From assembly GCA_035905775.1 (NCBI GenBank), contig JAMIGJ010000044.1:2-64001 (forward strand): a stretch of 64,000 nt of DNA. Direction: 5' to 3'. Made by a program: the position numbers and the translations under genes. How positions within the stretch are numbered: position 1 is the stretch's first letter; every line of letters begins with the position of its first letter. The notes beneath the pieces are model-generated. The model searched no databases, was not told the origin of the DNA, and worked only from the letters and a program-made list of their open reading frames with translations. This document shows, in pieces, positions 1-64,000 of this stretch. The stretch comes from Candidatus Altimarinota bacterium (GTDB lineage: Bacteria; Patescibacteriota; Gracilibacteria; BD1-5; UBA6164).

Positions 1-13
1 ATAAAAAAATAGA

Positions 14-967
14 TTATAAGCTAAAAAATACTTCAGACAAGAGCGTATCTTGCAACTTTGTTTTTCGGATATTTTTTCCGATAAATACTATGCGAGATAT
101 CCTCTCTTTTCTATCCCAACGCTCATCTGGGTTAAGCGTAAAACTCGAACCAGCTTTTTGGATGATATATCGTGCTTCAGGCATTTCGGCAAAGTGCACA
201 AATCCCTTGATTCGAAAGATATCATCGGGAAGATTTCCTAAAAAGTGTTTCATATGTTCGAGGCTATAACATGTTTCCTCTGTTTTAAAGAGATAGTTGG
301 TGATACTATGATCATGATGGTGATCGTGCTCATGCCCTAGTTCGTGTTCTATCGCTTCGGTCATCTCAAAACTCGTGGTATCGAGGATGTAACTGAGGTC
401 TACTTTTCCAAAATTTGTTTCAACGATGACTCCATAAGGATTGAGTTCTTTGACTGATTTTTTGATTGCTTCTATTTCTTCTGGTGCCACTCCTTCGACT
501 TTATTAAGGATGATAAAATTCGCAAACTCTATCTGTTCAAAGGTCGTTTGGAGTGATTGTACGAGATGATGCCTGAAATTTGTGGCATCAACGAGGCAGA
601 CGATACTATCCAGTTTACATCTTCCTTCAAAATCTTCGATGAGAAAGGTCTGAGCAATCGGCAGAGGTTCGCTCATTCCAGAAGCTTCGATGATGAGATA
701 GTCAAATTCTTTTCCAGAGTCAAGAAGTTTTTGAACTCCAGCGATAAAGTCTCCTCGTACTGAGCAGCACATACATCCATTCTGGATTTCTATGATTTCT
801 TCGACAGAGTTTTCGACGAGTTCTCCATCGACTCCTTCTTCTCCAAATTCATTTTCTATCACGGCTATTTTGTAGTCTTGGGTATTTCGTAAAATATGAT
901 TGAGAAGGGTTGTTTTTCCAGCTCCCAAAAAGCCAGAAAGTACGGTTACGGGTATTTTTTTATTCAT
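14..967 (-). CDS. COG0523/CobW-family G3E GTPase, putative zinc metallochaperone
   Basis: Uninterrupted 317-aa ORF with Walker A GFLGAGKTTLL, a CxCC motif (GCMCCSV) and a His-rich stretch HELGHEHDHHHDH. TAA stop. Lies directly downstream of a Fur-family gene. Confidence 0.85.
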   Translation of the reverse strand: MNKKIPVTVLSGFLGAGKTTLLNHILRNTQDYKIAVIENEFGEEGVDGELVENSVEEIIEIQNGCMCCSVRGDFIAGVQKLLDSGKEFDYLIIEASGMSEPLPIAQTFLIEDFEGRCKLDSIVCLVDATNFRHHLVQSLQTTFEQIEFANFIILNKVEGVAPEEIEAIKKSVKELNPYGVIVETNFGKVDLSYILDTTSFEMTEAIEHELGHEHDHHHDHSITNYLFKTEETCYSLEHMKHFLGNLPDDIFRIKGFVHFAEMPEARYIIQKAGSSFTLNPDERWDRKERISRIVFIGKNIRKTKLQDTLLSEVFFSL

Positions 968-979
968 AGATTTAATATT

Positions 980-1378
980 TTATGAGCTACACTCACTACA
1001 TTTCCCAAATAAATTTATCGAGTGTTCTCGCAGGGTGAAATGATGATTTTTTGCAACTTGAGAGAGAAGTTTGCAGAGAAACTGAGAGTCAAACGAAAGG
1101 ATTTTTCCACAAGATTCGCACTTCATATGTTCGTGATGATGCTCGTGTGAGTTGACTTCATATTGTTCGACTCCAGCCTCAAGACTCACTCTGCGAAGAA
1201 CTCCAATCTCACAAAAGAGCTTTATCGTCCGAAAGATACTCGCTCTCCCAATATCTGGAAAGCTTGTTTCGATATCACGAGCCGAAAAAATATGAAACTC
1301 CTGCATTTTTCCAAAGAGCTCTTTACGCTCAGGAGTGACGCTTTTTTTCTCACGTTTGAGTATTTCTTCTATTTTCAT
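980..1378 (-). CDS. Fur-family metal-responsive regulator (Zur-like)
   Basis: 132-aa ORF with a winged-helix N-terminus, HEHHHEH, and CxxC pairs (CESC, CSEC). Same orientation as the COG0523 gene. Confidence 0.8.
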   Translation of the reverse strand: MKIEEILKREKKSVTPERKELFGKMQEFHIFSARDIETSFPDIGRASIFRTIKLFCEIGVLRRVSLEAGVEQYEVNSHEHHHEHMKCESCGKILSFDSQFLCKLLSQVAKNHHFTLREHSINLFGKCSECSS

Positions 1379-1650
1379 AATTGAGACATAGTATCAATTA
1401 AAGTATTTGAAATATATGCAAGAGAGGTGAGATGTCAAAAGATTTTTGAGAAAAATAATTTCTTCTTGCAATTTTAAAACTTTTTTGTAGAGTACTGCTC
1501 GACACAGATTTTCATGTTTTGAAAATCCCCTGAATGAAGAGACACCCTTACACAAAACTTGAGGACATCTCTTCCTTGCGAGATGTATACATATTTTGTA
1601 GGTAGGTTTTATAGGCTTGTATGAGCGTGTAAAAAAGTGTCTCTTTATTT

Positions 1651-3604: not shown

Positions 3605-3610
3605 GAAATA

Positions 3611-5983: not shown

Positions 5984-8269
5984 ATGAAAAATATACAAAC
6001 TATACTCAAAAATACCTTTTGACTCGAATCTTTTCGAGAAGGGCAACAAGAAATCATCGAGCATATCATCGACGGAAACGATACGCTCGTTTTTATGCCG
6101 ACTGGAGGAGGAAAATCTCTTACCTATCAACTTCCTGGGATAGTCGGGGACGGGATATGTATCGTGATTTCTCCGCTTATTTCTCTCATGAAAGATCAGG
6201 TTGATAAACTCAATACTCTTGGAATACGTACAGAAGTCATCAACTCGACTCTTTCTGGACGTGAAAAACAGGATATATTGCATGAGCTCAAGTATTTTCA
6301 GGATGAAGGAAATGAAGGAATAAAATTTCTCTATATCGCTCCTGAACGTCTCAACTCTAATGAGTTTATCGGGATTCTCAAAACCTGTAAAATATCGCTG
6401 CTTGCCATCGATGAAGCTCATTGTATCTCGCAGTGGGGACATGATTTTCGTCCGAGCTATATGAAAATTAAAGGATTTATTGATGAACTTGCAGGAGGGG
6501 GAGTACGAACTTTTCCGGTCGTAGGACTCACTGCAACCGCAACCCATAAAGTACGAGAAGATATCGTCGAGCGACTTGGGCTTAAAAAATATAGGAGTTT
6601 TATCTCAGGATTTGATCGAAAAAATATCTGTATCATCGTCCGAGAAATCTCTACCAAAGAAGAAAAACAAAAAAAAGTCGAGGAAATCATCGCAAAAACA
6701 CCTTGAGTTGGGATTATCTACTGCTCAAGCCGAAAACACGTGATCGAGCTTTCAGATCATCTCATCTCTCGTGGGATAAAAACAGGAGTGTATAAAGGAG
6801 ATTTGAGTGCAGAAGTGCGTGACCAACAGCAAAATGCCTTTATGAATGACGAGTATAAGGTGATGGTTGCCACCAATGCCTTTGGAATGGGAATCGATAA
6901 AAAAGACATTCGTTTTGTGATTCACTACAATCTTCCCGGAAGTATTGAAAACTATTATCAGGAAATCGGTCGGGCTTGAAGAGATGGAAAGATGAGCTAC
7001 GCAGTGACCCTTGCAAGTTACGGTGATACCAAAATCCAAGAATTTTTCATAGAAAATACCTATCCAGAAAAAAAAGAAGTTTTGGATTTCTATGACTATC
7101 TCTACCAAAAGATGCAACTTTGAGAAGGAAAAGCCGAGCGAGTAGCAAAAACCTATGTGTCGATGGCCAGTGAATCAGGAGTCGGAAATGATATGAAAGT
7201 CGCTGCGATTATCAAGATTCTCGAAAAATATGGAATCTTGCGACGATGACTCGAAGAAACAGATACTGAGCAAGACTTTCGAGGACGTGGTTTAACATTG
7301 CTACAAGAAAAACGTCAACACAGCCATGTGATGATAGACTGGAAACGGCAAGAACTTCTCAAAAATGAGTCCTATCATAAACTCGAAGAGATGAAAAAAC
7401 TCCTCTTTTATCCACGTTGTCGTAAGAGATATATTTTAGAGTACTTTGGAGATGAAGAAGATCTAGAGCATCTTCCAGCAAACTGTGGAGTGTGTGACTA
7501 TTGTCTGGAAGCAAGAAAATATAGCTCTGAAGATATCGAAAAGATGTTTCCCCTGAGTAGCTATAGTCTCATCCTCGAATCTGTAAAAAAATATGACGAA
7601 AAGTTTGGACAAGTATTATTGGTGCGCATGCTCTTAGGAAGTGGAGATAAAAGACTTACACAGTGGCATCTGGATGACTATGAGCATTTTTGAGCGCTGA
7701 AAGAATATGATAAGGAGGCGATTGGAGCGATGTTTGATGCACTCGTCACCGAAAACTTTCTTTTTAAAACTTCAGGGCAATACCCATGTATAGGTATTAC
7801 AGAGCTCGGTCGTGCTGCGATTTTTCGCAGTCAGGTCTTAAAAAATGCTCACAGTGATATGAATCACTTTGTGATGCAAAAAGTATGAAACAGCAAAAAA
7901 ACAGCCGGAAAAAGTGACGGGAAAAAAGCTGCAGCCAAAAAATCTGAAACCTATAAAGAGACTTTAGAGCTCTATAAAGCAGGAAAAACCATTCCAGAAA
8001 TCGCTGAGCTTCGGGACTATACCATGCAAACCATCGAGCAACATCTCGTACAACTCTATATCTCAGGACTCCTTTCGCTTTTTGAAGTACTGAAGCTTTC
8101 AGATCTCGAAAAACTCAAGACAGTAAAAACACTCGTTGAGTCAGATGCACTCATCGATAACTCAGCTTTGAAACCCATAAAAGAGATTTTACAAGATGAG
8201 GGAAGAGATGATATCTCCTATTTTGATATCAAACTCGCACTTGCGCTCATCGAAAAAGGAGATTTATAA
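5984..8269 (+). CDS. recQ: ATP-dependent DNA helicase RecQ with C-terminal helix-turn-helix-like domain
   Basis: Five track fragments lie in one frame joined by 7 TGA. Motifs: FG(TGA)LESFREGQ, MPTGGGKS, DEAHC, GRAG(TGA)RDG and a CxxC zinc region. 761 aa, TAA stop. Confidence 0.9.
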
Positions 8270-8350: not shown

Positions 8351-9151
8351 ATGTCTGATTCAAAAGAAACATGAGGATGAAATAAAGATCCACTTCCATT
8401 TAATATTTATAAATGATATTTTTGAAAAATAGAAATGGGAGATATTATTCCTGTTTGATGAAATATTGTGTGAGGTGTAACTTCACATCTAGAAATAGAT
8501 GAAATACCTCAAAATACAATGATTGATATTCATGAATTTGAAGGATTATATAATAAGCAAAAATCGTGAATTGAAGAATACCTAAATAAAGCTCAAATAG
8601 ATGCTGAAAGTAGAATGTTTTTTGCTCTATGGAATGTACAAACTAGAATTCAAAAAGCACTCAAAACTATGCAGCAAACAGATTTATCTCAAAGAAGTAC
8701 CCTTTATAATACCAAAGGGCAAGTCAAACTTTCAGAACTGATATGAAATTCTGCGTGTGCTGAACGAGCAGCATTATGAACATATGTATTATATGGTTTA
8801 TGAATAGAAGCATACTATATGGCATGATATTCTTTTCAGAGTGATATAGATGATGGAGAACCACATTCATGGATTATTATTCCATGAGTAAGTAAAACTC
8901 TTATTTTTGATGTTGCTCGACCAATTACAATTGAGTGAGGACAAGAATTGCCTAATATTTATAGGATAAATGGAGAATTTAATAAAGAAATAATTTGAAA
9001 ATCAGATAATTTTTATGTGGAAGCAAAATCTGTATATTGATGAAGAAATTCACTTCATTTTTGAGTTTGAGATGGAAGAATGTCATCTGAAATTCCAAAT
9101 ATAGTAAACACAAGTTCAAATGAGGTAGTAAAAATCATCTCATGAAATTAG
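8351..9151 (+). CDS. hypothetical protein, transglutaminase-like cysteine-peptidase fold suspected
   Basis: Invisible in the standard-code track because it has 20 in-frame TGA in 266 codons. ATG to TAG. Candidate Cys-His-Asp pattern: NSACAERAAL...PHSWIIIP...IFDV. Confidence 0.6.
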
Positions 9152-9168: not shown

Positions 9169-9870
9169 ATGAAAAAAATATTATTTCTCATACCTCCCAG
9201 CGAAGGAAAAACTTCAGGATGAGAGCTCTGAAATGAAACTCTCAACTTTCATTTTGAAAAACCAACAAAAATAATAGAGCAAGCAAACGAAAAAGATCTC
9301 AAATGCAAGGGAAAACGTTTTGAGGAAGCGCAGGAACTCAATACTTTATGTAGTTCTCCTCTCCTGCAAGGGAGAGGAGATTCAGAGGTGAGGGCTGCGA
9401 TTGCTCGCTATAATGGAGTGATGTATAGCGCAATTGATTACGACGCAATGACTTTGGATGCGCAACATATTTTTGATAGGCATTTTTTGATATGTTCTGG
9501 GATGTATGGACTTGTGTGACCACAAGACGCAATAGCAAACTATAAACTTCCGATAGAGACGAAGTGACTTTCGCATTTTTGGAAAGAAAAAATCACTCAA
9601 ACACTCAATGAGAGTAAGTTTAATATCATCGTAGATGTACTTCCAGGAAGCTATAAAAAGATGATTAACTGGAAAAAACTCCATAAAAAAGTCATAGTGG
9701 TAGATTTTTTTGAAATGAAAGATGGAAAGAAGAAAAAAATGACGCATGGAGTAAAAGCCGTGAAAGGGAAATGGATTAAAAAACTCTGTGAAAAAGATTT
9801 CACAGAGTTTGAAAACATGATTCTTGAAAAAATATCACAAGGGGAAACTAGGCTTGAGGTACTTCAATAA
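9169..9870 (+). CDS. yaaA: YaaA-like peroxide stress protein (UPF0246/DUF328)
   Basis: Motifs LIPPSEGK, RYNGVMYSAID, ICSGMYGLVG(TGA)PQD, YKLP, FWKEKIT and THGVKAVKG. 4 in-frame TGA, TAA stop. Confidence 0.75.
9348..9394 (+). repeat. PE-1 palindromic element copy inside yaaA coding sequence
   Basis: CTCCTCTCC-TGCA-AGGGAGAGGAG followed by ATTCAGAGGTGAGG. Translated in-frame as CSSPLLQGRGDSEVR. Confidence 0.65.
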
Positions 9871-10555
9871 GCAAAATATCACTTTCACTTTCTGCAGTAA
9901 AACCTATTTTTTGATTGATTTCTAAAATCCCAATTGCATCACGAGTGTGCAGAAGCGTGTCTTCTACTACAAAACTTCCTGAAATATTCATCACATAGAT
10001 GATATTGTTTGCTTTTTGGAGTTGATACTCAAAACTCTCTCCAGTGTTTGTAAGTCTTCGAGAAATATACGCATCTTGGTTGATAAAGGCAACATCATCT
10101 CGTTTTATTGGTCCAGAAAGTAAGGTCCATTCTCCATTTTTGAGAGTGTAGGCTGCTTGAGAATATTGAGGATCAATCCCATTTTCTCTCGTATGTATCC
10201 AAATTTGAAAGAGTTCACAGGCTATAAAAGGATCATGATTCATCTCAGAGTGATAGACTCCACTTCCAGCAGACATGGATTGTACTTCTCAAATAGATAC
10301 GATTCCAGCGTTTCCCATAGAATCTTTATGAGAAATACTTCCCTGAAGTGGAATAGTGATAATTTCCATATTTGCATGAGGATGCATTCAAAATCCCTTT
10401 GCAGGAGCAATCCAATCATCATTGATGACGCGAAGAGCTCAAAATCCCATACGATCGGGATCATAATAATCCGAAAAAGAAAACGAAAAATTACTTCGAA
10501 GCCACGAAATTTCTGATTTTCATCGAGTATGTTCTGGAAAAAATATAGTTTTCAT
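9848..10555 (-). CDS. pirin-family protein (cupin)
   Basis: Motifs HPHANMEIITIPLQG and MSAGSGVYHSEMN. 4 in-frame TGA. Its start shares TAATG with the upstream gene's stop. Confidence 0.85.
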
Positions 10556-15570: not shown

Positions 15571-15609
15571 AAAAAAACTCTCTCAAAGAATTTTCTTTGA
15601 GAGAGTTTT
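15571..15609. terminator. bidirectional terminator hairpin, copy 1 of an identical 38-bp repeat
   Basis: Sequence AAAAAACTCTCTCAAAGAATTTTCTTTGAGAGAGTTTT sits between convergent genes. It is identical to the copy at 17059-17096. Confidence 0.75.
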
Positions 15610-15611
15610 AT

Positions 15612-16175
15612 CTATTTCTTTTTTCCCTGAATGTAATCTTTAATTTCTTTGATTTTTGTGTCATTCTTTATTTCCTCTGCAATAGTATTCTTATCCTTTT
15701 TTAAAGTTTTTGTCCCATTTTCATGAGAAATAATAGTATACCATTTCTTATCCATATTATATTTTGTAGCAATAATATAGTATCATCATATTTCTAATAA
15801 TCCATTATTTCATTCTATTTTACCTCTCATTGCATCTCATTGGCTGATATATAAAATACCATTTTCATATCCTGCTTCTTGTTCAATAATAATATTTTCC
15901 TCGACATTACCAGAAATAGCTTCTAATACTTTAGCACTATATTGAGTCGCAGGAAGTGATCATAAATATTCATTTCATACTTCCTTTTCAACTTTTACTA
16001 CCATAATTGCATCTGCAAATTCTACTAGATTTTTTGTTTGAGAAAAATCCATTATATATTGAGCATCATAAATTGACGAAATAGGAAATTTAATCACATT
16101 ATAATGTATTCAAGTAGTAATAGTCCCAATGATTCAGAATATGAAAATGAAACTAATAAAAATATTTTTATTCAT
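15612..16175 (-). CDS. hypothetical membrane-anchored or secreted protein (187 aa)
   Basis: Absent from the standard-code track. 8 in-frame TGA, N-terminal hydrophobic anchor, ATG to TAG verified triplet by triplet. Confidence 0.6.
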
Positions 16176-16208
16176 ATGAATTGAAATTAGTTAATAAATG
16201 ATTCTTTT

Positions 16209-16706
16209 TTACCATAAATAATTATAATCAGCCTTATCTTGAGTTCATAATGATGTTTTTGCAGTTTGACTTGAGTACATAACATTGTTTATTACATTAT
16301 GATCGGCAAGCCCTAAAGTATGTCATAATTCATGAAGAAAGGTATTTGTTCTAGGAGAATTAGATTGATTTTCTAAATAAGCTTTATTTATTTCAACAAG
16401 ATCTGAACCGATTCTAAATGTTGTTCGTCATGTCCAGCTAGAATTTGCAACAGTGACATCTTTAATTTGTATATCTTCGATTGTTGAAGCTGTATCAGCA
16501 GCTATTGAAATAGATCACATTGCATTCCAAGTTGAGATAGCACTGGTAAGTTGAGTGGAATACTTTGTACTTCATCACCATCTAATTTCTCAAGAATCAA
16601 CAGAAGAAACTCATAAAACATAATTTGCAGCAAAAAGATTCGTTGAATACAATAAACAGAATGTTCATATAGCCATTACTATATAAAAAGATTTTTTTAT
16701 TTTCAT
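16209..16706 (-). CDS. secreted small zinc metalloprotease, snapalysin/matrixin-like
   Basis: Signal-like N-terminus and the motif HELG(TGA)HTLGLADH (HExxHxxGxxH). 9 in-frame TGA in 165 codons, TAA stop. Confidence 0.7.
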
Positions 16707-17058
16707 ACGAAAAAATCAAGAAATAAAATTGTACTTTGCAAAGTATATATATTTTCTCTTTTTATATCGGCAAAGCAAATTCTGAAAAAAAAAACAGATA
16801 GACAAAAACTCAAAAAACTTTTCAATAAAATACAAATATATTTAAAAAAAATTGCAAAACTCAAAAAAAATGATACAAATAGGGTCTGTGTGGAATAAGA
16901 AATAAAAGTTTTGCAAGACATTTTTTTCAAATCTATCTTCATGAGAGATACACAATATGTTCTCTCTTCGCCCACAGGAGGAGAGATTTTTATAGCATTT
17001 TTACAAAATAGTAACATCTTATCCCTTTCTTATAAAACGAAAGTTACGAAATAAAATT

Positions 17059-17096
17059 AAAAAACTCTCTCAAAGAATTTTCTTTGAGAGAGTTTT
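17059..17096. repeat. copy 2 of the identical 38-bp hairpin (terminator downstream of tRNA-Gln)
   Basis: Exact repeat of 15571-15609, located 13 nt from the tRNA-Gln 3' end. Confidence 0.75.
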
Positions 17097-17109: not shown

Positions 17110-17183
17110 TGGCTGGGATGGAGGGGATCGAACCCCCGATGCCGGATTCAGAGTCCGGAGCCTTACCACTTGGCGACATCCCA
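17110..17183 (-). tRNA. tRNA-Gln (anticodon CUG)
   Basis: Cloverleaf with acceptor TGGGATG/CATCCCA, anticodon loop CTCTGAA, T-loop GGTTCGATCC and an encoded CCA. Confidence 0.9.
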
Positions 17184-17236
17184 AAAAATAAACTCTCACT
17201 TGAATTCTCTTCCGTGAGAAGGGCAAGATGCTAGCA

Positions 17237-17284
17237 TGTAGCTTCTTGCTCCTTTCTTCAAGAGGAAAGATTCAGGAAAGAGTT
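17237..17284 (+). repeat. PE-1 palindromic element copy
   Basis: TGTAGCTTCTTGCTCCTTTCTTCAAGAGGAAAG followed by ATTCAGGAAAGAG. Lies between tRNA-Gln and the rplL stop. Confidence 0.65.
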
Positions 17285-17291
17285 ATTCAAA

Positions 17292-17669
17292 CTACTTGAT
17301 TTCAACAGTTGCTCCAGCTTCTTCAAGTTTTGCCTTGATTTCTTCAGCTTCAGCTCGGTCAATACCTTCTTTTACAGCACCTCCTGCATCTACAAGAGCT
17401 TTTGCTTCACCAAGTCCAAGTCCAAGAAGTTCTTTTACTACCTTGATAACAGCAATTTTTTGTCCTCCTGCATTAGCAAGGATAACGTTTACTTTCGATG
17501 GTCCTTCATCTTCAGCAGCAGCTCCACCACCAGCAGCAACCATTACAGGAGCAGCAGCAGAAACTCCAAATTCTTCTTCCATAGCGTGTACGAGGTCGTT
17601 GAGTTCAACGATAGTAAGCTCTTTTACAAGCTCCATAATCTTAGCAGCGTTTTTTGATAATTCAGCCAT
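17292..17669 (-). CDS. rplL: 50S ribosomal protein L7/L12
   Basis: [19 protein letters not shown]..., an Ala/Gly hinge, and C-terminal domain [19 protein letters not shown]. No TGA. Confidence 0.95.
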
Positions 17670-17804
17670 TTTTGCAGAAATTATAAAAATAAAAATATAT
17701 TTCATCAAAGAAATTTTTTCCAATATCCCAAAACATTGGGATGTATCTCCACGAAATAGGGGATACTGAATACATCTCTTCTATGCTAGCTTTTGAGGCT
17801 AGTC

Positions 17805-17887
17805 AGGATTCTAAAAATGCTGTAGAGAACGAATGTATTCGTTCAGGTATGAATATTTTCATACCCTACAGACCATTTTTAGAACCT
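17805..17887. repeat. nested palindrome (three-way junction) in the rplJ-rplL spacer
   Basis: Outer stem AGGATTCTAAAAATG/CATTTTTAGAACCT, then CTGTAG/CTACAG, enclosing hairpins AGAACGAA/TTCGTTC and GGTATGAA/TTCATACC. Confidence 0.6.
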
Positions 17888-17902
17888 TAGACTAAACACA
17901 AA

Positions 17903-18556
17903 TTACTCAGCTTTTGCTTCTTCTGTTGCAGGAGTTTCAGTAGGTACTTCTTCAGACTTTGCTTCAGTTGGAGCTTCTTCTGTTTTCGCTTCAGGAGCTG
18001 CATCTTCAACTTTTGCTTCTTTCTTTGCTTCGAGTTTTCCAACTACATCTTTTCCTTGAGTTTCAAGGTCTTTCGCAGCAGCATCAAACCAGCGAGCCAA
18101 TCCAGCAAGAGGAGCTTGCATAGATCCAACGAGTCGTCCAAGAAGGGTTTCTCGGCTTGGCATACCAGCAATTGCTTTGGTTGCTGCTTCATCCTGAAGT
18201 TCTCCTTCAAAGATAGAAACCGTCCAATTTACTTTTTCACCTTTCGTTTTTGTAACGACTTCATTTACTTTTGCAAGTCCTGCAATCGCATCATCGTTCG
18301 AACATACCATTCCAATTTGTCCTGGAAGGGTTTTGAGATCAATATCGATATTGAGCACATTTTTAATCGCTTTCACGATAATCGTCTTTTTTGCAACCGT
18401 ATAGTTCGCGTTTACAGATCGAAGACTTTTTCTCATTGCTTCAAATTCACTTACAGAAAGTGCGTTTGTTTTTGCAAAACCTATTGATTTTGCTGCTTTA
18501 ATTTTCGCTTCTAGATCTGCGATAATCTCTGCTTTTTGTTGTTTTGTTACTGCCAT
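17903..18556 (-). CDS. rplJ: 50S ribosomal protein L10 with acidic C-terminal extension
   Basis: L10 N-terminus MAVTKQQKAEIIADLE. Upstream of rplL. 217 aa with an E/A/K/T/P-rich tail. No TGA. Confidence 0.9.
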   Translation of the reverse strand: MAVTKQQKAEIIADLEAKIKAAKSIGFAKTNALSVSEFEAMRKSLRSVNANYTVAKKTIIVKAIKNVLNIDIDLKTLPGQIGMVCSNDDAIAGLAKVNEVVTKTKGEKVNWTVSIFEGELQDEAATKAIAGMPSRETLLGRLVGSMQAPLAGLARWFDAAAKDLETQGKDVVGKLEAKKEAKVEDAAPEAKTEEAPTEAKSEEVPTETPATEEAKAE

Positions 18557-18822
18557 AATATTGGTTTAAGCAAGTAGGGTATAATATGTAAGCATATATA
18601 AAAAATCTCTTTGCGAGAGCAAAGAGAAAGTTTTTGGTATTTTAAAAATACATTCAAAAAATCGACTCTTTTGTCTCGATAGGTCTTACGTGACTTTGCC
18701 TATGGTCTTCAACAAAATATATGTTTACGGAGAGTATTATAGTGATATTTTTATGCAGTCAAGTTTTTTGCGAGAGAAATATATTTTTCATTATCTTTGC
18801 TTGATATTTTTCAAAAAAATGT

Positions 18823-18850
18823 TTGACAATTCTCGCAAAACCTATAGCAT
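18823..18850 (+). promoter_or_regulatory. sigma70-like promoter of the ncRNA gene
   Basis: TTGACA at 18823-18828, a 16-nt spacer, then TAGCAT at 18845-18850. Confidence 0.4.
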
Positions 18851-18856
18851 ACTAGG

Positions 18857-19198
18857 TATCCTCTCGGTAAAACAGCGAGTTGGACACGAGTAGCTCCCAT
18901 GGGTGGGGGCTAAAGATAAACGCGCAGAAGCGCAAAGGAGTAAAGTTATGTTCTGTCAAACAGGGAACCAAAATCCAGCCCCATTTATGGGGCAGAATCA
19001 ACAGGAACCCGAAAACGGGTCGGATGTCGAGCAGCCTCGAATGCAACTGAAACCTCAACGTGATGTTGAGTGTGAATGTTGCGGCTTTCCCAAGTCAATG
19101 CACATGGGGCCTTGCGGAGTTAATAGCAGATAACTGTCTATAACTCCATGAAATCGACCCGCGCAAGTTTACAGGCCTGCGCGGGTCATTCTTTTTTT
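18857..19198 (+). ncRNA. rnpB: structured ncRNA, candidate RNase P RNA
   Basis: Locally GC-rich with its own promoter and terminator. Blocks resemble RNase P: GGAGTAAAGTTATG (P4 5' strand), CAGGGAACC, ATGCAACTGAAAC, GTGAATGTTGCGG, CCAAGTCAATG, and GCAGATAACT that can pair with AGTTAT. Confidence 0.45.
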
Positions 19199-19212
19199 AA
19201 ATATTCTACTAC

Positions 19213-19247
19213 AAAAAAATCTCATACATATATGTATGAGATTTTTT
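19213..19247. terminator. bidirectional terminator (rpmE)
   Basis: AAAAAAATCTCATACATATATGTATGAGATTTTTT, a perfect hairpin flanked by A and T runs. Confidence 0.7.
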
Positions 19248-19263
19248 AAAGGTGTTTCAAAAA

Positions 19264-19527
19264 TTATTTTTTTGCGTTTTGCATTTCTTCCATCTTTTTC
19301 TGACGTGCGTAAAATTTGTCCACTGCACCAGTCTTGAGGATTCTCTTTTCTCCTGTATAGTGAGGATGAGACTGAGATGATACTTCGATAAATACACTTG
19401 GATACTCTACTCCTTCGTAGGTGTAGGTTCCGGTTGTCTTAATCGTAGAGTTTACGATCAGTACGTACCCGATAGCTTGCTCCACAAAAGCAACTTTTCG
19501 GCTCACTGGGTGAATTCCTTCTTTCAT
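19264..19527 (-). CDS. rpmE: 50S ribosomal protein L31, type B (no CxxC zinc ribbon)
   Basis: MKEGIHP...SSQSHPHYTG. The zinc-binding cysteine pairs are absent. Confidence 0.9.
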   Translation of the reverse strand: MKEGIHPVSRKVAFVEQAIGYVLIVNSTIKTTGTYTYEGVEYPSVFIEVSSQSHPHYTGEKRILKTGAVDKFYARQKKMEEMQNAKK

Positions 19528-19614
19528 AGTTTCTTTTTTTACTTGCCCGCTTGATACGGTGCAAAAATATAAATATTTGGAAAAATAACAGATTAACTGT
19601 TAGCGGGATATATA

Positions 19615-19698
19615 TGGTGCCCAGGAGAAGACTCGAACTTCCACACCATACGGCACTGGTTTCTAAGACCAGCGTGTCTACCATTCCACCACCTGGGC
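19615..19698 (-). tRNA. tRNA-Leu (anticodon UAG)
   Basis: Acceptor GCCCAGG, anticodon loop CTTAGAA, long variable arm, T-loop GTTCGAGTC, encoded CCA. Confidence 0.9.
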
Positions 19699-19713
19699 AT
19701 TGCATAAAAAATC

Positions 19714-35201: not shown

Positions 35202-35204
35202 GCA

Positions 35205-43534: not shown

Positions 43535-45238
43535 ATGCGCTACAATATACGGGTTGCAGGAGCTGCAGGTCTGGGGATGAACTCAACGGCAGACATCATC
43601 GTGGAAGTCTTTGCGGAGCTCGGGTATCTTGTCAATACCGATATCGAGTATCAATCTCTGATTAAAGGATGAGTCAATTATTTTGACATCTTTGTATCAG
43701 ATCGATCAAAATATATTTCAAAATATGTGGATGTGCTTATCGCGCTTGATAGTCTCAATCTCGCTGCGTGGCTCAAGGATCTCAAGTCTGGAGCTTGTAT
43801 CATCACGAATCAAAAAAATATCGAAAAGCTTGAGGCAAAAGGGCAAGATTTTTCTGCATATAATCTCCTGCCAGTTGCCAGTGACGATAAGTATGATAAT
43901 ACCTATCTTATCAGTATTTTTTCCAAACTTTTCGGACTTCCTGCGCATCTGCTTGAGGAGAAAATAGCAAAAATATTTGCAAAAAAATGACCAGATGTCG
44001 TCGCTCAAAATATTGCTCTGTTTCAAAATATTTTACAAAGTTATGATATCCCAGCTCATATCAGCTTTCCAAAGTTTGACTCCATTGGTCCAGCTCGTCC
44101 TGTCAGCTATGGAAATAAGATGCTCGCACAAGGGGCAATCGATAATGGACTTGAATATTACTCTGCTTATCCGATGACTCCAGCATCAACGGTACTTTCT
44201 GAAGTGATTAAATCTAAAAAAGTTCCATACTTGCAGGCAGAGGATGAAATCTCAGTTGCGATGAGCGCACTTGGTGCGAGCTTTGCAGGGAAGAGGTCTA
44301 TGGTTGGGACATCGGGAGGAGGTTTTGCACTCATGGTCGAGTCTATCTCGTTTGCCATACAGGCAGAGTTGGGGCTTTCGATGATACTCGCTCAGCGAGC
44401 AGGTCCAAGTACGGGAACTCCTACCTTTCATGAACAGGGAGATCTCAATCTCGCTCTGAATCCAAGTTTTGGGGATTTTGATCATATCGTGATTGCTCCA
44501 AGTACGCTCGAAGATGCCTATTATCTCTCAGGATATTCTCTCAATCTTACTCAAAAATATCAAACCATCGTCATCGTCCTCATCGATAAACAGTTCTCAG
44601 ACGGAAAGGCAACCCTCGAAGAAGAACTCAAAACTGCAGGAATCAACCGTGGAAAGCTCGAAATGACTCCAGCAAGTGACTTTAAACGATATGCGCTCAC
44701 AGACGACGGAATTTCTCCATACTCTATCCCAGGAACTCCAAACGGAGACTTTATCGCAACGAGTTATGAGCACGATGAGTTTGGGGCAACAACAGAAGAT
44801 ACAGACATGAAAATGAAGATGACCGAAAAGCGCTGGAAAAAACTCGAAAATTTTTATGAAAAAGAAGGGATATGTGGGTATGAGGTGTTTCACTCAGAGA
44901 CCGGTCTCGTATGAGACCGGTCTCAAGCAGGACTTAGCCCAAAAAAAATGCTTCTCACAACGAGTTACACGAGTTATACCGCAAAAGAATTTATCAAAAA
45001 TAATCCTGAGTTTGGACTCATCATCGTAAAATTTCTCAAGCCACTTGATACAAGACTTCGAAACGAACTCGTAGGAAAGTCAGAAATCATCTTTGTAGAA
45101 AGCAACTACTCAGGACAACTCGAAAACTATATCACCAAAGAACTTGGACTGGCCTATATCGACGGACTCAAAATCTCAAGACTGCGAAAATATGACCTCT
45201 ATCCATTTTACTATGAGGATTTTGAAACGCTAAAATAG
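43535..45238 (+). CDS. korA: 2-oxoacid:ferredoxin oxidoreductase, fused gamma-alpha subunit
   Basis: N-terminal gamma-like domain IRVAGAAGLGMNS, then an alpha domain YSAYPMTPAS, GTSGGGFALM. 567 aa, 3 TGA, TAG stop. Confidence 0.85.
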
Positions 45239-45452: not shown

Positions 45453-46061
45453 ATGCGTAGCTGACTGACAAACATACAATGGTGTCCAGGATGTGGAGAT
45501 TTCCTCATCATCATGGCCCTCAAAAATGCCTTTAAAGAGCTTGAAATCGCGTCTCATAATCGCGTGGTCGTTTCTGGAGTTGGATGCTCTGGAAAAGCAA
45601 GCCAATACGTGGACTGATATGCAGCTGAAACGCTTCATGGACGTGCGGTGCCATTTGCGACGGGAGTGAAGCTCGCAAATCCTGAACTCACGGTCGTGAT
45701 TATGGGAGGAGACGGAGACGGATATGGGATTGGGATGGGGCACTTTATCCATGCATGTCGTAGAAATATCAATATGCTCTATATCGTGTTTGATAACGAA
45801 AATTACGCACTTACCACAGGACAGGCAAGTCCAACCACTCCACTCGGGGCTCAAACCAAAACCACTCCAGATGGAAATACCGTTGCTCCAATAGATCCAC
45901 TCAAGCTCGCAGCAGATGCTGGATGTACTTTTGCTAAACTCGGGCACTCCAAAGATTTCAAAGCACTCAAAGAGCTTATTAAGGAAGCGATACAACATCC
46001 AGGATTTGCACTTATCAATGTGATTCAGGATTGTCCAAGTTTTAAGAGATGGGGAGAGTAA
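45453..46061 (+). CDS. korB: 2-oxoacid:ferredoxin oxidoreductase beta (TPP-binding) subunit, short
   Basis: Motifs WCPGCGDF, GVGCSGK, HGRAVPFATG, GGDGDGYGIG and YALTTGQASPTT. 202 aa. Confidence 0.85.
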
Positions 46062-46276: not shown

Positions 46277-48055
46277 TTACTCTACATACAAAATATCCTT
46301 CCAATCCGCTCGGTAGAGTCCTTCTCCGAGCCTTTTTTGATCGATGGCATGTCCGATAAACCCGATACTTCTGGCAAGCAAGAAGAGCCCATTAAAAATC
46401 CCTGCCTCGATGTAGAGCTTTTTTTCATCGTAGTCCATGCTGATATCCTCGAAGATATCCAAAAGCATCGCAGCAATGTATCCGTCGACATTGAGGATGA
46501 GATTTGGCTTTTTTTCGAGGGTGAGTTCTGCTACCTGTCTGGCAAAATCAAGATGTTGGTGAGTTGGAAAATCTTGTGCGAGTGTTTCGAGGATTTCACA
46601 ACGAGAATCAGGGTTGAACTTGGATTTTACCTTGTGCCCGATTCCTGCGATATTTTCTCCAGCATCTTTCATACTCGCAACAAAGTCTTCAGCTGAAATA
46701 CCCGTTTTCAATGCCTCAAGCCAGTTTTTTGCAGCTCCGTCTATCGCTCCTCCAAAGCGTGGTCCGATAGCCGTGAGTCCTGCGATGAGCGAGGATTTGA
46801 GATCATTTCCCGCACGAGAAGTGATGATGGTGTTGATGGCTCCAGAAACCGCAGGTCCATGGTCAGCAACGAGCACTAAAACCGTGTTGAGAAATTTTTT
46901 CGCATAGTCTGGAAGAGATTTTTTAAGCCAGAGTTGTCCGATGATTTCTGCGATATCAGGATGTTGCGTAAACTCAGATATTTTTTTCCCATTGTATAGG
47001 AGTTCCTCACCTCGTTCGTCCGAAATAGACGAAGTAAAAGAAGTTTTTCTGCGATGCTTGATGTGAGCGAGTTTCTCGGAGAGAGTATCTGTTTGAGAAG
47101 AGTCTCTTTTGAGACCAGTCTTTTGAAATACTTCCTCAATCTTCTCTCCAAAATCCATATAGCTTTCTGGAACGATGGCTCCTGCATTTCTGAGAGCCAT
47201 ATTTTTATAACTGGCAGTTTCTTCGTCTTTGTTGGACTTTGCTCCTGCATGTCCAAATTGTACTTCTCCCTTGATATGTTCGTTAATCGTTCCGATACAC
47301 CATGCAACGACGGGTTTAGTAATTTCTCATGTCTCTATCATCCGTGCTACCTCGAGTTCGTCGCGTCCTCCGATTTCCCCGAGCATCACGATCATTTTGA
47401 TGTGTTCATCTGCCTGCATGATGTTCATCGCAGCAGGGAAATCCATGATATTATACTTATCTCCCCCAAGAGCGATAGAAAGCGCAGTTCCATTCGTTCG
47501 GTCTGCGATCACACGACGCAGTTCATTACTCATCCCTCATGATTTTGAGACAAATCCGACATTTCCCGGCTCATAGAGTCGTGAATCAACGATATTTTCG
47601 AGGCTTCCACCTGTGTTTCCAGCACGAAATACTCCCGCACTCATCGCTCCAACCGTTGCTGGTCCGATGATATTGAGTCCAAGTTCCTTATTTTTTTCGA
47701 TGATTTCAAGCGTGTGTCTCTCAGGAATTCCCTCAGCAATGATGATAATATTTTTGAAATATCCAGTATCCATCGCTTGCAACGTCGATTTTTGAGCAGA
47801 GCGAAAGCTTGCAAAATTTACTAGAGTATCGAGTTTTTCGGAAATACTTGTTGGTATATTTTCAAAATCTGAAAAACTAGGAACGAGAATTTCCTTGTCT
47901 CCATAAAAGAGCTTTTGCAGGGCATATTTTTTTCCAGGATTCACAAAACAAAGCACTGATGCTTCTCGACCAGAGAGAAAATCAAAATCGAGCATGTGTT
48001 GAGCTGCTCCCGTTTGGAGACCATAGATGCAGGCAAAAGAATTTTTGGTAAACAT
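46277..48055 (-). CDS. aclA: ATP-citrate lyase alpha subunit (CoA-binding, CoA-ligase and citrate-synthase-like domains)
   Basis: Three fragments lie in one frame. Phosphohistidine loop VQFGHAGA, and C-terminal LVLVADHGPAVSGA...GPRFGGA...GIGHKV. 592 aa. Confidence 0.8.
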
Positions 48056-48057: not shown

Positions 48058-49266
48058 TTAGAGTTTTATTTCATTCAAAATATCAGTCATATAGTGGTCA
48101 CTTCCGGTGATATGTGCTGGAATATCGAGCCTTTCACAAGCAGTTTTTAGGAGTTCAAGTCATTTTTTTTCGTTGATTCCTCCTCGTCGTACGAGGATTT
48201 CTATCTTTTGTGCTCGGATTTCTTCTTGGAGTTCTTCGAGGATATCGATGACTCCCTGAAAGGTCGTTGCTATATCGGTAAAGTTTGCAATCGCTCCTGC
48301 GATAATGAGGTATTTTTTTTGAGTCTGAGGTTTTGCTTTCAGCACCTCTTTCACTAACACTCGCACATATTCTCTGGTAAATTCTCGAGTCGGATTTCCA
48401 GACAGTTCTCCATAATTTCCTATTTCATGAGCATATCCAAGAGCTCCGAGTGAGTCCGTCATCACGAGTGACCCTCCTCCTCCGGCAAAAAGTGTCCAAA
48501 TACTCGCATTTGGATTTAAAATCTTGAGCTTCAGGGAAGCTCCCGTTTGCATATCAAGTTCTCGGATATATCGCTCGGCAGCTGACTCCTGAAATCCAAA
48601 ATTATTCGGAAACTCTATGAGAGCCCAGTGCTCTTTTTGAAGAAAATGTTCGCAGTCATCGATCTTTGCTACCGCGTCAAGCAGATGAAAATTTCCAAAA
48701 GTATCTTCAGAAATAGGATTAAACTCGAGACTGGTAAATCCATGCGTGCGATAAAAATCAAAGAGGGAAGAGATGAGTTCTTGAAGCTTCTTCTCTCCTT
48801 GTAGAAGAGAATTGAGAGAGGTTTCCTCCAACTCATCATTTACTTTTACGACTATACTTTTCGTAGTTTCCCAGTTTTCTTCGATATCGACTCCTCCTGC
48901 AGGAGAAAAAGTGACGATATCTCCATCTCGACTTTGCGTAAAACTCAGATAGTATTCTTGCTTTATTGGGAGCATTTCTTCTGCGAGAAATACATCGAGT
49001 GTTCCAAGTACTCCATCGATATTGACTTCTTTTTTGTACCAGTCTGTAAGCCATTCTTTTGCTTCGCTTCTCGCGAGGTTGATTCCGACCATTCCGCGTT
49101 TTCCGCGTTTTCCAAAGAGCATATCAGGTTTTAAAACATATTTTTTTTCTGTATCAAGTTTTTCTATATCTGAAATATCTCGAATTTGGATTCCAGAATA
49201 AAAAGTTCCAGCATATCGTGCAAACATCTGTTTTACATCATATTCTCGCAGTGAAATCTGAGCCAT
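48058..49266 (-). CDS. aclB: ATP-citrate lyase beta subunit (ATP-grasp and citrate-binding)
   Basis: MAQISLREYDVKQM..., KPDMLFGKRGK, LEFNP, and IAGAIANFTDIA. Its stop is 2 nt before the aclA start. 402 aa. Confidence 0.8.
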
Positions 49267-49493
49267 AAAGTAGGGAAAAAAATTTTTAATGCTGAGATTA
49301 TACAAAATTTTTGTATTTTTGAAAACATAATTTATACTAGAAAGTAATATTTTTTGAAAAAAAATTATGGTACAGTCATCGTTCAGTATGCTTCTGCAAC
49401 TGGTTATTTTAGGAATTTTTCTTTTTATTGTCCTTTTTGTATTTTTGAAAAAATAAAGTATAATTTTCACATATATTTTATAATTCTGTTTTT

Positions 49494-58791: not shown

Positions 58792-59958
58792 ATGAAAAAA
58801 ATAGTTACGATTTGAGGAGGAAATGGACAATCCAATCTCCTGGATGCTATGCAACGATATTTCCCAAAAAAGAAATATCATATCTCTAGTATCGTCTCGA
58901 TGTCGGATGATGGTCGTACAACAGGGGAGTTGATGCGAAAGTTTCAGGAAGATCTGGGACTGCATCTCCCACCTCCAGGAGATCTCCGTAGATGTCTGTT
59001 TATGATGTCGAATTCAGAGCGAAAAGATGAGTTCGAGCAGTTTCTTGAGACGATTATAGAGCGAGATATCCAGATTTCAGAGCTCACGATTTGGGACTAT
59101 TTTAGGCTGGTAGGTGCTGATGAGACTTTTAAAAAGCATTTACAAAAAATGAAGTCTCTTTCCCTTTTCAAGGGAGAGAATTCAAGCGAGAGTTTCTTAA
59201 ATTTCACTCTCCCTCTCAGGTCTTCTATCAAGGGGCACAAAGTCGGAAATATCCTGATGGCAAATCTCTACTACAATCTAGAAAAAGATTATTATAAGAT
59301 GCTTGAGGTGATGCACGAGATACTCGAAGTTGAGGCAGATATTATCCCAGTTACGACGCAGCGAGCTTATATCCGCGCTGTTTTATGAAATGGGGAAGTG
59401 ATAGAAAGCCAAGATAGAATTTCCAATGTGGCTTCCTATACCGCAGGGATTGCAGATCTCGAACTCATGGAAGACTCAAAACATGCCTACCAACATAAAA
59501 ATGTATTCAAGGCAATAAAACAAGCTGACTACATCATCATCACTCCAGGGGATCTCTTTACCTCTATCATCTCCAACTTTGTGATTGGAGGAGTGAGTGA
59601 CGTGATTAAAAAATCCGATGCAAAAATCATCTATATTGGAAATTCGACTAATAAAGGAGGAGAAACACAATGACTGACACATCTGGATATCATTAATAAA
59701 ATCGAGAGATTTTTAGGACGCAAGATAGATATATTTATCTGTAATAACAAAAAACTTGAGCTCACTCTCGAAGAAAAACAAAGCTTTCAAAGTAATATCT
59801 CTGTAAAAGGAGGGGATTATCTCTATCTCTCAAAAGGGGAGAAAAAAGAGCTCGAAGCCCGTAAAGTAAAAGTCTTCGAAGCTCCTCTGCTTGATGCACA
59901 TACCTTCTATAAACATGATAAAAAAGCTCTCACCGAGCTTTTAGAAAAGATTTTGTAG
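58792..59958 (+). CDS. YvcK/CofD-family (UPF0052) protein
   Basis: Motifs IG(TGA)GGNGQSNLL, SMSDDGRTTG, PPGDLRRC and ITPGDLFTSI. 388 aa, TAG stop. Confidence 0.8.
59153..59193 (+). repeat. PE-1 palindromic element copy inside the YvcK-like coding sequence
   Basis: CTCTTTCCCTTTTCAAGGGAGAGA followed by ATTCAAGCGAGAG. About 85 percent identical to the mutY copy. Encodes KSLSLFKGENSSESF. Confidence 0.7.
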
Positions 59959-60562: not shown

Positions 60563-60588
60563 ACCGATGAAATGAAAAAAATAAATTT

Positions 60589-62079
60589 TTACTCAGTTTC
60601 TAAACTGCTCAGTTCCATTTGAGCTTGTGTTGACCACAAAGTATTAGGTGCTTCTTGGAGTACTTTTTTAAAATATACTTGAGCAATCCCTAAGTTCCCA
60701 CTTTCTTTTGCAGTATAGGCAATTTGTATCAAAAGAAAAGGATTTTTTGGATCTTTTGAAAGAGCATGTTGCAAAAGAGAAAAAGCTTCTTGCGTATTTC
60801 CATTTTCTCGAAGAATCCATCCTTCATACGCATAAAAGTCTCAATTTTCAGGGAAGAGTTTTTGTCATTTTTTACTCCAGTCTTGAGCTGTCTCATATGA
60901 TTCATGGAGAATATGATAATACACTGCAAGCCCAAGATCAGATGCTTCAAGGTTTTCTTCCTCTTCTACGAAATCTCAAAATGCCTTGAGCATCCCAGCA
61001 TCATTTTCAAGGAGATAGAGATTATGGATGAGTTGTCTGCGAACATCGATACTTGGAGTATACCCAAGCTCAAGCGCTTTGTTGAGATGGATATTGGCTA
61101 CGACATAGTCTTTGAGCTTCTCGTGAATGACTCACAGCATATAGGAAACATCCGCATCTTGCGAGTCTATTTTTTGATACTGTGTCAGTACTTCGCGAGC
61201 CTGAGTATATTCTCCGAGTTCATAATAACTTTGCGCAAGTATTTTGAGAACGGGTTTATATCCAGGTTTTTCTTTGAGCAGTTCTTTCGAGAGCGCAACT
61301 GCAACAGGATAGAGTTTATTATGGTACCACGCTCCGATGAGATAAGCATTTTTGAGTGATACGTCTTCAAGCTGAAAATTTTCATAATTTTTCAATGCCT
61401 CTTCAACTTTGAGAAGAGGAGAAAATACGGTATTTTGAGTTCAAGTACCACTCTCTTGCACACTACTTCCTGAAAAGGAGTCTTGAAATCAAAGTTTACA
61501 CATATGAAAATCTACGACACATGAGAGACTTTGCGTATAATAAAATATTTCCTCTGAGCTATAATTGTATTTTTTGAGTTCATTTTCTATTTTCACTCGA
61601 TTTTCAGGCAGAGTTATATCGAGACTATAGATGAGACTCAGGGCAAAAAGCTCTTTTTGACTTTGTGGCATCTCTGGAAGTCGAGAGAGATAGTTGACAC
61701 TGCTTCCAAACTTTTTGAGTTCAAAATAGGTGAGCGCAATCTTTTCGAGGATGAGAGGATCATTTGGATTTTTTTTGTAAAACTCCAGATATTTTTTGAG
61801 CGCGAGCGAAAGTTGGTTATTGTTATAATAACTGTCTCCTTCAAGAATCATTCCTTTATCTGCAAGTCGTTTTTTAATCAGCTCGATTTTTGTTCGTACT
61901 GCATCTGGCTCTTCCGTCACTTCCTCTTCGACAGGAGTATTTTCTTCTGCTCCAGTTGAGGAAACAGGAGTTTCACTGTTTTTTTTCTGCTCAGTGATAA
62001 GAGTCTCTATCGTCCCAGTAAAAAATAATATTCCTGCTGCAAAAGCAAAAAACGTAAAAATAATAAGAATATTGCGCAT
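60589..62079 (-). CDS. membrane-anchored TPR-repeat protein
   Basis: Three track ORFs lie in one frame (6 TGA). N-terminal TM helix MRNILIIFTFFAFAAGILFF. Repeated TPR-like A/Y/L patterns. Confidence 0.7.
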
Positions 62080-62135
62080 AGTCGTTTTGTTTTTTTTATT
62101 TTTTTGTATAAAGTATGATCTCGAACGTATCATAG

Positions 62136-63683
62136 ATGCTTCTTGGAAAATTGCAACAGTACTATCTTTTAAAGTTCTCGACATTGTATAAAAAAATAGC
62201 CTCAAATACGATTGCACAAATCGTTTCAAAAATGCTTACCGCACTTATTTCTATCGTCCTGATTGGACTTCTCACGAAATATCTCCCGATGGAGCTCTAT
62301 GGAAGCTACAATAAAGTGTATAGCTATCTTGGGATTTTTGCATTTCTTGCGGATTTATGACTCTATACGATTGCGATTCGAGAAATCTCTGCCTGACATA
62401 CCGCAAAAGAAAAGATTATTGGAAATATCCTGACGCTTCGTACCATTTTAGGTCTGTGAATCTGGGTTCTTGCGATAGTGATAGCACTCTTGCTTCCAGG
62501 GTATCACGATACTTTGACCCTTATTGCGATAGCGATTGTGGGAGCCTTTACACTGGTAAGCCTTATAAACTCTTCGCTTTTGGCTCTCATGCAGTCACAA
62601 ATGAAGATGGAATTTTCTCTGGTATCGCTTATATCAGGAAAACTGCTCAATCTTGGGCTTATTGCGCTCGCTCTTTTGTATATTTTTCAAGAGAGCTCTG
62701 AACTTTCCTTTGCCTTTCTTTCGGTCTTTGTTGCAGGATTTCTTGGAATAGTCCTTAATACACTTTTGAACTATTGCTATCTCAAAAAAACCATAGAGAT
62801 TCGCTATCTTTTTGATGGGGAATATATTACTCATATTTTCAAAATTTCACTTCCATACGGACTCGCTTTGTTTCTTTCGGTGGTATATTTTAAGGTAGAT
62901 GTGATATTACTTTCTTTGCTTGAATCTCCAGAAAAAGCAGATATTTCTATTGCTCTGTATGGTCTTCCAATGAAGATTATTGAAGTGCTCATGGTTCTTT
63001 GAGGTTTTTACTTAAACTCTTTGCTTCCTACCCTCACAGAAAAATATAAAAATACCGACGTAAAAGCGCTTGAACATATTTTTGGTCTGAGTTTGAAAGT
63101 ACTTTTGAGTTTTGGTTTTTTGATATTTTTACTGGGGAATCTCTTTGCCTCTGAAGTGATATCGATTATTGCCACCCCAGACTATCTCACACCAAGTAAT
63201 CATCTCTATAGTTCGCTTGATGCCTTTCGAGTCGTTCTTGCCGTACTCCTGTTTTATTTTTTATCACTGTGTTGTATCTATATGCTGATTGCATCAGAAA
63301 GACAGGGGATACTCTTGTGGGTCAATCTTGCCGTGACGCTTATAAACATTATTGGAAATATTATCTTTATCCCATATTTTTCATTTATGGGAGCAGCTTA
63401 TATCACACTCGTCTCGCAGATATTTTTACTCCTGTGTACAGGATATATCATTTTGAAAGACATAAAGATACCAAAAATCTATATCTTCTCTTGCATCAAA
63501 ACATGGTTTTTTGGGACTCTTCTCTTTTTTCTATTTTACTTTATTTCTTTTTGGAAAGATTGGGGAGATATACTAACTCTCTTTATTGTTGCTCCAATGT
63601 TTCTCGCAATGTATATTGCGATGGAATATCTCTTTTCAAAAAAGCTTCTCAAAGCTTCTAATATGTTCTCAGCACTCAAGTAA
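62136..63683 (+). CDS. MOP-superfamily polysaccharide/lipid flippase (Wzx/MurJ-like)
   Basis: Three fragments lie in one frame joined by TGA. About 12-14 TM helices. 515 aa. Confidence 0.75.
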
Positions 63684-64000
63684 CAGTATTAAGTTCAAGA
63701 AATTCACTATAATCCCTATTTTTAACCTCGAGAGTGAAAATTTTCAAGTTTTGATTCGTACATCACACTCCAGAAAATGAAAGTTGTGATCCAGTGAGCA
63801 AGAGTGTTCCAGTATTGTTTCCTGTGACAGCTCATGTGAGTGTGCCAGTAAGATTTTTACAGCCAATAGATCTGATCTCATATGGAGTTTTTGCAGACCA
63901 GTTTTTTCCATAAGATATCCACGTACTTCCACTCAAATAGCTACTTTGTAGAGTCCCACTTGCACTGCGAGAAATTTGTATTCTCCAACTTGTAGGGATG
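63658..64000 (-). CDS. hypothetical Gly/Thr/Ser-rich protein, 5' end outside the window
   Basis: Open frame in code 25 from the window edge to TAG 63658-63660. Contains LTGTLTGAVTGNNTGTLLLTGS repeats. Overlaps the flippase 3' end. Confidence 0.35.

Follow-up and report, generated by a model that had tools for sequence, protein, structure and literature searches.

How is the codon TGA to be read in a 64-kb stretch of bacterial DNA (64,000 nucleotides of contig JAMIGJ010000044.1, assembly GCA_035905775.1, Candidatus Altimarinota bacterium; 37.5% G+C content, GC; the window below) whose reading frames are broken by TGA only and never by TAA or TAG? An initial annotation, made from the letters alone, had claimed that UGA is a sense codon for glycine and that translation table 25 is needed. 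That claim is borne out by the reading frames, by alignments to proteins in the PDB and by codon log-odds, and it can be said with great confidence that the window comes from a Gracilibacteria-type chromosome of the Patescibacteria, or candidate phyla radiation (CPR), in which UGA encodes glycine (code 25), UAA and UAG are the sole stops, UGG is tryptophan, and CGA and CGG are arginine. Since UGA=Gly in this clade is already well established, the window is a further example of a known reassignment and adds no new principle; its main value lies in correct annotation.

Stop-to-stop open reading frames (ORFs) were measured with TGA, TAG or TAA freed in turn. The fraction of the window covered by ORFs of 300 aa or more is 0.19 under table 11; it rises to 0.83 once TGA is sense, but only to 0.23 and 0.25 in the controls with TAG and TAA freed, respectively; TAG and TAA were dismissed as candidates because they leave the cover almost unchanged. 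Re-calling the genes by a greedy procedure, a check that the initial annotation had proposed, replaces the 105 ORFs of table 11 (mean 144 aa, coding density 0.71) by 75 ORFs (mean 256 aa, density 0.90), the ORF structure being identical under tables 4 and 25. The same call on three standard-code loci of similar GC is unaltered by reading TGA as sense, and in two related loci, L001 and L003, it raises the coding fraction from ~0.4 to 0.93. A curated set of ORFs scored by codon usage comprises 64 genes (86% of the window), of which 51 contain a total of 217 in-frame TGAs and which end at TAA (45) or TAG (19). In BLAST alignments homology extends for 10 or more residues to either side of 43 of the TGAs, and PDB alignments bridge more of them. 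Where a window gene has an orthologue in the related loci, both proteins end no more than 5 residues from the end of the alignment in 15 of 17 cases, the two exceptions being a distant ABC match (29% identity) and a partial alignment of an ATP-citrate lyase subunit. The C-termini and the 64-gene set therefore uphold the earlier statement that the TGA-cut genes continue in frame and end at TAA or TAG. Six genes that it had reported as completely missing from the standard-code track are likewise intact frames from ATG to TAA or TAG, with 4-20 in-frame TGAs, no internal TAA or TAG, and a longest TGA-free run of 32-72 codons.

TGA might have a dual meaning, i.e. glycine at most sites and at others a stop or a site of low-level misreading. 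A few ORFs do carry TGA right before TAA or TAG, e.g. the two fragments of a GDSL lipase gene, and rare Trp, Ala, Asp and Lys peptides were recovered at UGA in BD1-5 proteomics (PMC4032931). However, a TGA terminator is required by no gene of the window, the C-termini of orthologues agree at TAA/TAG, and homology crosses the 43 TGAs just mentioned, and on this evidence a dual code is very improbable. The proteomics of the BD1-5 bacterium itself yielded 97 peptides unique to the glycine version at UGA vs 3 unique to the tryptophan version (PMC4032931).

The residue specified by UGA could not be drawn independently from the large protein database, because the best 120 matches all belong to the recoded clade, some being translated with table 4 (W at TGA) and others with table 25 (G). 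The residue was therefore sought in PDB chains, in standard-code loci and by comparison of codons. TGA was translated as X, and ten proteins (RecQ, an ABC ATPase, MiaA, MutY, photolyase, pirin, a TrmH-like methyltransferase, YaaA, ATP-citrate lyase and PilB) were aligned to PDB chains, which include no CPR proteins. Glycine stands opposite 24 of 38 TGA sites, in most or all of the homologues shown (binomial P = 7e-19, given a 7% glycine background), and tryptophan opposite none; tabulating the residue at each TGA, as the initial annotation had suggested, thus returned glycine, while tryptophan, the outcome it had named as refuting, appears at none of the sites. BLOSUM log-odds summed per site over the curated genes against 65 standard-code loci fetched with GalU give Gly +14.5, with Ala (-0.9) next best and Cys (-12.8) and Trp (-13.4) far below, and against 15 related loci, counting only their non-TGA codons, Gly +23.5, Asn +3.0, Cys -21.5 and Trp -21.9. 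By these scores Trp, Cys/Sec and the other residues were ruled out. Glycine amounts to 6.8% of residues when TGA is counted and 5.65% when it is not, and the TGA-dense genes would have only 1-4% glycine without TGA. UGA is thus read as sense, glycine being the residue that homology leads one to expect.

Tryptophan deserves separate mention as the residue given to UGA by table 4, the code of Mycoplasmatales, of some insect endosymbionts and of the Patescibacteria family JAKLIH01 (PMC13092985). Such a reading shares with code 25 a sense UGA and the whole ORF structure, a UGA-to-Trp lineage is known within the Patescibacteria (PMC13092985), and public databases do translate these very proteins with W. 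The residue in the window is nevertheless glycine: Trp is opposite 0 of the 38 PDB-aligned TGAs and opposite none in the curated genes compared with standard-code loci, its log-odds are strongly negative in both data sets, conserved tryptophan columns are occupied by TGG, which itself scores as Trp (+40.5 and +111.6), and the tryptophan content would rise from 0.9% to an abnormal 2.1%. Table 4 is on these grounds highly improbable for the window.

The relatives of the window share its signature. Among GTDB species representatives, the GalU genes nearest to that of the window have identities of 81%, 75% and 69%, and the metagenome-assembled genomes (MAGs) that hold them go by the labels Peribacteria, "bacterium", Gracilibacteria or Patescibacteria. 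In the 15 related loci, the cover by ORFs of 200 aa or more goes from 0-0.12 under table 11 to 0.74-1.04 once TGA is sense, and Lactobacillales loci and a Peregrinibacteria locus (L024) are without this recoding signature. An unfiltered six-frame comparison, which takes in some non-coding frames and for which reason the log-odds count was repeated on curated genes only, finds window TGAs opposite mostly TGA (123) or glycine (45) in the relatives, and relatives' TGAs opposite glycine in 595 cells, TGA in 123 and other residues in no more than 80 each. The best 120 database matches for each of prepilin peptidase and YaaA are from the same clade, the named ones being Gracilibacteria or Altimarinota, and the best GalU, prepilin peptidase and YaaA matches come from MAGs whose names are Gracilibacteria, Altimarinota or Patescibacteria, with identities to GTDB representatives of no more than 81%; these single genes allow a tentative placement in Gracilibacteria/Absconditabacteria (GTDB class JAEDAM01). 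The relatives' UGA-sense signature fits the clade that uses table 25 (PMC8629427, PMC4032931), and the earlier placement of the window in the CPR on the strength of its code is in accord with closest relatives that are labelled Gracilibacteria or Patescibacteria and carry the same signature. Two of the closest, L001 and L004, have the NCBI label "Candidatus Peribacteria" yet show the UGA-sense signature; the label is probably wrong. Four public metagenome assemblies contain contigs that match parts of the window at 99-100% identity, so that the organism has been sampled repeatedly, though in short contigs only; it occurs in SRR18360465, ERZ794920, ERZ27240681 and ERZ27240683.

These comparisons also bear on three other possible causes of in-frame TGA: lesions in pseudogenes, errors of sequencing or assembly, and selenocysteine. 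Some damage or error is indeed present, as the GDSL lipase gene appears frameshifted at about 20443-20485. On the other hand TGA alone interrupts, at 217 sites in 51 genes; the TGA positions are common to, or GGN in, 15 related genomes; the independently assembled contigs of 99-100% identity have the same sequence; and sites of the Sec/Cys type are ruled out by the cysteine log-odds. Lesions, errors or selenocysteine are accordingly extremely improbable as the explanation.

Several of the TGAs lie in motifs with conserved glycines, and the TGAs quoted in the initial annotation for RecQ, the ABC ATPase and MiaA do lie in frame within GRAxRDG, MxPSGQxKT and LLVxGTGLY (x being TGA). The RecQ helicase gene (5984-8269, +) has TGA 6977-6979 at the invariant glycine of motif VI, GRAxRDG, and two further TGAs (6020-6022 and 7691-7693, +) opposite glycine in the PDB alignment. 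Both Walker A glycines (GxxGxGKT) of the YbbA-like ABC ATPase (20751-21413, +) are encoded by TGA (20865-20867 and 20880-20882), in columns that hold glycine in 38/38 and 37/38 standard-code homologues, as is a glycine of its signature motif LSxGEKQR (LSGGQ; TGA 21174-21176, +), conserved in 38/38. MiaA (23811-24707, +) has TGAs 24129-24131 and 24150-24152 (LLVxGTGLY), together with 24528-24530, which is also opposite glycine. The MutY and YvcK sites match their earlier description: MutY (35861-36976, -) has glycine-facing TGAs at 36692-36694 (xLGYYSRA), 36623-36625, and 36581-36583 plus 36575-36577 (LPxVxPY), and the YvcK/CofD-family gene (58792-59958, +) has TGA 58813-58815 in the N-terminal loop IxGGNG, where glycine is found in 12 of 12. 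The ATP-citrate lyase subunit with the CoA-ligase and citryl-CoA lyase (46277-48055, -) has TGAs 47537-47539 (SKSxGMSNEL) and 47327-47329 where human ACLY has glycine, the human motif opposite the former being SRSGGMSNEL. TGA 40885-40887 of the PilB/GspE-type ATPase (40474-41787, -) is opposite the conserved glycine of RLLNMGV. The A24 prepilin peptidase gene (27778-28896, -) contains 12 TGAs, among them 28042-28044 and 28024-28026, the latter encoding the glycine of the catalytic GxGD motif (MGAxD); both columns are exclusively G or W in the best 120 relatives, W being a TGA translated with table 4.

Several observations weigh against a uniform glycine reading or limit what supports it. First, 14 of the 38 PDB-aligned sites fall in non-glycine columns (A, S, K, E, D, P, L and others). 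This is what one expects of non-conserved positions, and such sites carry no information on the residue; pirin/YhhW (9848-10555, -), e.g., has three TGAs opposite glycine (10520-10522, 10388-10390 and 10289-10291) and one (10439-10441) opposite Ser/Ala, and a photolyase (28974-30338, -) has two opposite glycine (30315-30317 and 30006-30008) and four in variable columns (A/P/S/K/V). Second, TGA 9517-9519 of YaaA is opposite arginine in E. coli YaaA, and the site is K or R in 94 of the 120 best-matching relatives, G or W in none, and Arg in the closest homologue (87% identity). Probably this is a CGA- or AGA-to-TGA change, which in code 25 is an Arg-to-Gly missense rather than a nonsense mutation; it may also be an error, and the overall inference is unaffected. 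Third, the finding that genes end only at TAA or TAG is partly circular, because the curated ORFs were delimited by these codons from the outset, and independent support comes from the C-termini that agree with orthologues. Finally, a tRNA with anticodon UCA was found neither in the window, whose complete tRNA list is Gln(CTG), Leu(TAG), Tyr(GTA) and Thr(TGT), nor in 16 related loci (~270 kb), and no release-factor gene of either kind is among the scanned proteins of the window, which amounts to ~5% of such a genome.

Going by the clade literature, a dedicated tRNA-Gly(UCA) with the glycine identity set G1:C72, C2:G71, G3:C70 and U73 would decode UGA, and release factor 2 (prfB), which terminates at UGA, would have been lost. 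A tRNA-Gly(UCA) and the absence of release factor 2 accompany UGA=Gly in Gracilibacteria and Absconditabacteria (PMC8629427), and UGA=Gly in this clade is also reported in PMC13092985. Code 25 is known from the Gracilibacteria (GN02/BD1-5) and the Absconditabacteria (SR1) through Hanke 2014 (PMC4032931) and, as PMC8629427 cites them, Campbell 2013 and Rinke 2013. The window resembles other code-25 bacteria in that in-frame UGA encodes conserved glycines, in having no stops but UAA and UAG, in UGG as tryptophan, and in a low to moderate GC, and no essential difference is apparent. It differs from the sampled code-25 relatives in lying at the GC-rich end (37.5% vs 20-35%) and in a lower TGA share of glycine codons (~17% vs 30-88%).

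Some members of the clade have altered other codons as well: Absconditabacteria read CGA and CGG as tryptophan in addition to UGA as glycine, and some Gracilibacteria may read CGG in this way (Shulgina and Eddy 2021, PMC8629427). The log-odds screen was repeated over all codons against both the standard-code and the related loci, and TGA is the sole deviation common to the two data sets; near-ties of GTA, TTA, TGT and TGC with similar residues in the small standard-code set were not repeated in the related set. CGA, the commonest arginine codon (223 codons, 121 per 10,000), scores as arginine, and CGG is rare (21 codons, 11 per 10,000) and encodes an invariant arginine at 4 informative sites, namely in RecQ motif VI, in HxRxRM of two photolyases and in the Fur helix. 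The Absconditabacteria assignment of CGA and CGG to tryptophan is excluded by these observations; the window shares UGA=Gly with that variant and differs in that CGA and CGG are still arginine, and plain table 25 is therefore adequate.

The practical consequence is that annotation of the window requires table 25 and not table 11 or table 4. Standard-code annotation had been called badly wrong here, and rightly so: table 11 truncates or loses about four fifths of the genes. Table 4, a frequent pick of metagenome gene callers, yields full-length proteins with tryptophan at every recoded glycine, including catalytic and nucleotide-binding ones. Public matches to the prepilin peptidase (entry P0001) accordingly have 5.7% tryptophan, i.e. 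are table-4 translations, and the product of gene 8351-9151 shares 92% identity with entry P0121, which comes from a 99%-identical contig, about as expected from 20 Gly-to-Trp changes in 266 residues. Mistranslated entries of this kind in public collections can distort alignments, hidden Markov models and structure predictions.

Although the TGA share of glycine codons is ~17% overall, it ranges from 0 to 82% per gene and is negatively correlated with gene GC (r = -0.72). The genes for L10, L7/L12, L31, GalU and CobW are TGA-free, and the 777 codons of the YbbP-like ABC permease gene (21475-23808, +) include 25 TGAs. Gene 8351-9151 (+) is the most TGA-dense, with 20 TGAs in 266 codons and a GC of 29%; its product resembles a transglutaminase-like protease in its pattern of Cys, His and Asp residues, and no match to it was found in Pfam. 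A homologue lies in the Patescibacteria locus L084, which uses the standard code (ORFs cover 0.86 of it with table 11, TGA is never found in frame, and one gene has TGA as its stop), and has GGT, GGA or GGC opposite 11 of the 17 aligned window TGAs. A secreted metzincin-like gene (16209-16706, -; weak Matrixin match, E=6e-4) has 9 TGAs, of which 16323-16325 encodes the glycine of HELxHTLGLADH. Three further TGA-dense genes, to which no function is assigned, have 8 TGAs each: 15612-16175 (-; 187 codons, GC 25.5%), 34133-34567 (-; 144 codons, GC 29%) and 35321-35869 (+; 182 codons, GC 26%). These five and a DUF1905 gene with 4 TGAs (30702-31007, -; start previously placed at 30983) are the six formerly "missing" genes. 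The TGA share is at least 50% in five of the six, whose GC is 26-30% and whose GC at third codon positions is 12-17%, and 57% in the sixth. Across the relatives the TGA share of glycine codons climbs from 0.30 at 35% GC to 0.88 at 21% GC, and because it rises as GC falls the TGA-dense genes resemble lower-GC Gracilibacteria in codon usage.

Two of the TGA-dense genes, 15612-16175 and 16209-16706, occupy a 1.45-kb low-GC (22-30%) islet between the two copies (15572-15609 and 17059-17096) of an exact 38-nt direct repeat, AAAAAACTCTCTCAAAGAATTTTCTTTGAGAGAGTTTT; chance alone would be expected to give no such repeat. The repeat forms a hairpin, and its right copy is directly 3' of a tRNA-Gln(CTG) gene (17110-17183, -), an arrangement which suggests that the islet (15572-17096) is an insertion next to a tRNA gene. 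Repeats were also looked for around 8351-9151 and 34133-35869, with nothing convincing, and the TGA-dense genes, checked against PHROGs for signs of phage ancestry, gave no matches. The per-gene spread in TGA share may reflect gene transfer inside the code-25 clade. That the TGA-dense, low-GC genes are recent imports which move only among code-25 bacteria or their phages is a tentative idea, on present evidence rather doubtful; if true, per-gene TGA density would flag genes brought in from Gracilibacteria of lower GC, and the recoded stop would act as a barrier that keeps a gene pool private.

A number of other features of the window were observed. The GDSL/SGNH lipase gene (20123-20757) is split between two frames that change at about 20443-20455, the N-terminal part (20123-20485) matching positions 1-78 of the Pfam profile and the C-terminal part (20479-20757) positions 93-178; either the gene has a frameshift mutation or is a pseudogene, or the assembly is in error. 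A multi-pass membrane protein of 515 aa (62136-63683), with 4 TGAs, is absent from the curated list because of an overlap of ~49 nt with the end of a TPR gene; it looks like a polysaccharide flippase by its sequence, and NCBIfam gave no match to it. The rplJ-rplL genes (region 17110-19952) are not preceded by rplK-rplA-nusG-secE, and upstream are instead the L31 gene and a tRNA-Thr/Tyr/Leu cluster. Between the L31 gene (19264-19527, -) and rplJ lies an ORF-free, GC-rich (49%) segment, 18850-19200, which folds far more stably than its shuffles (z = -5.2 on the plus strand and -6.1 on the minus strand) and ends on the plus strand in a strong hairpin followed by T7. It is a candidate small RNA; Rfam returned no family above threshold for it, and a sub-threshold L10-leader match is at 18590-18730 (-; E=0.003).

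The combination of an ATP-citrate lyase and a 2-oxoacid:ferredoxin oxidoreductase is unexpected in a reduced CPR genome. The lyase is of the two-subunit type, with the ATP-grasp and citrate-binding subunit at 48058-49305 (-) and the CoA-ligase plus citryl-CoA lyase subunit at 46277-48055 (-), the latter matching human ACLY with E=2e-83, and the oxidoreductase genes (43535-45238 and 45453-46061) adjoin it. Conserved counterparts of the lyase genes are present in relative L001, and those of the oxidoreductase genes in L002. Besides the photolyase at 28974-30338 (-), two more genes of the photolyase/cryptochrome family, 31162-32682 (-) and the DPRP-type 32681-34150 (+), make up three consecutive members, and the window further encodes MutY, endonuclease III, a 3-methyladenine glycosylase and RecQ.

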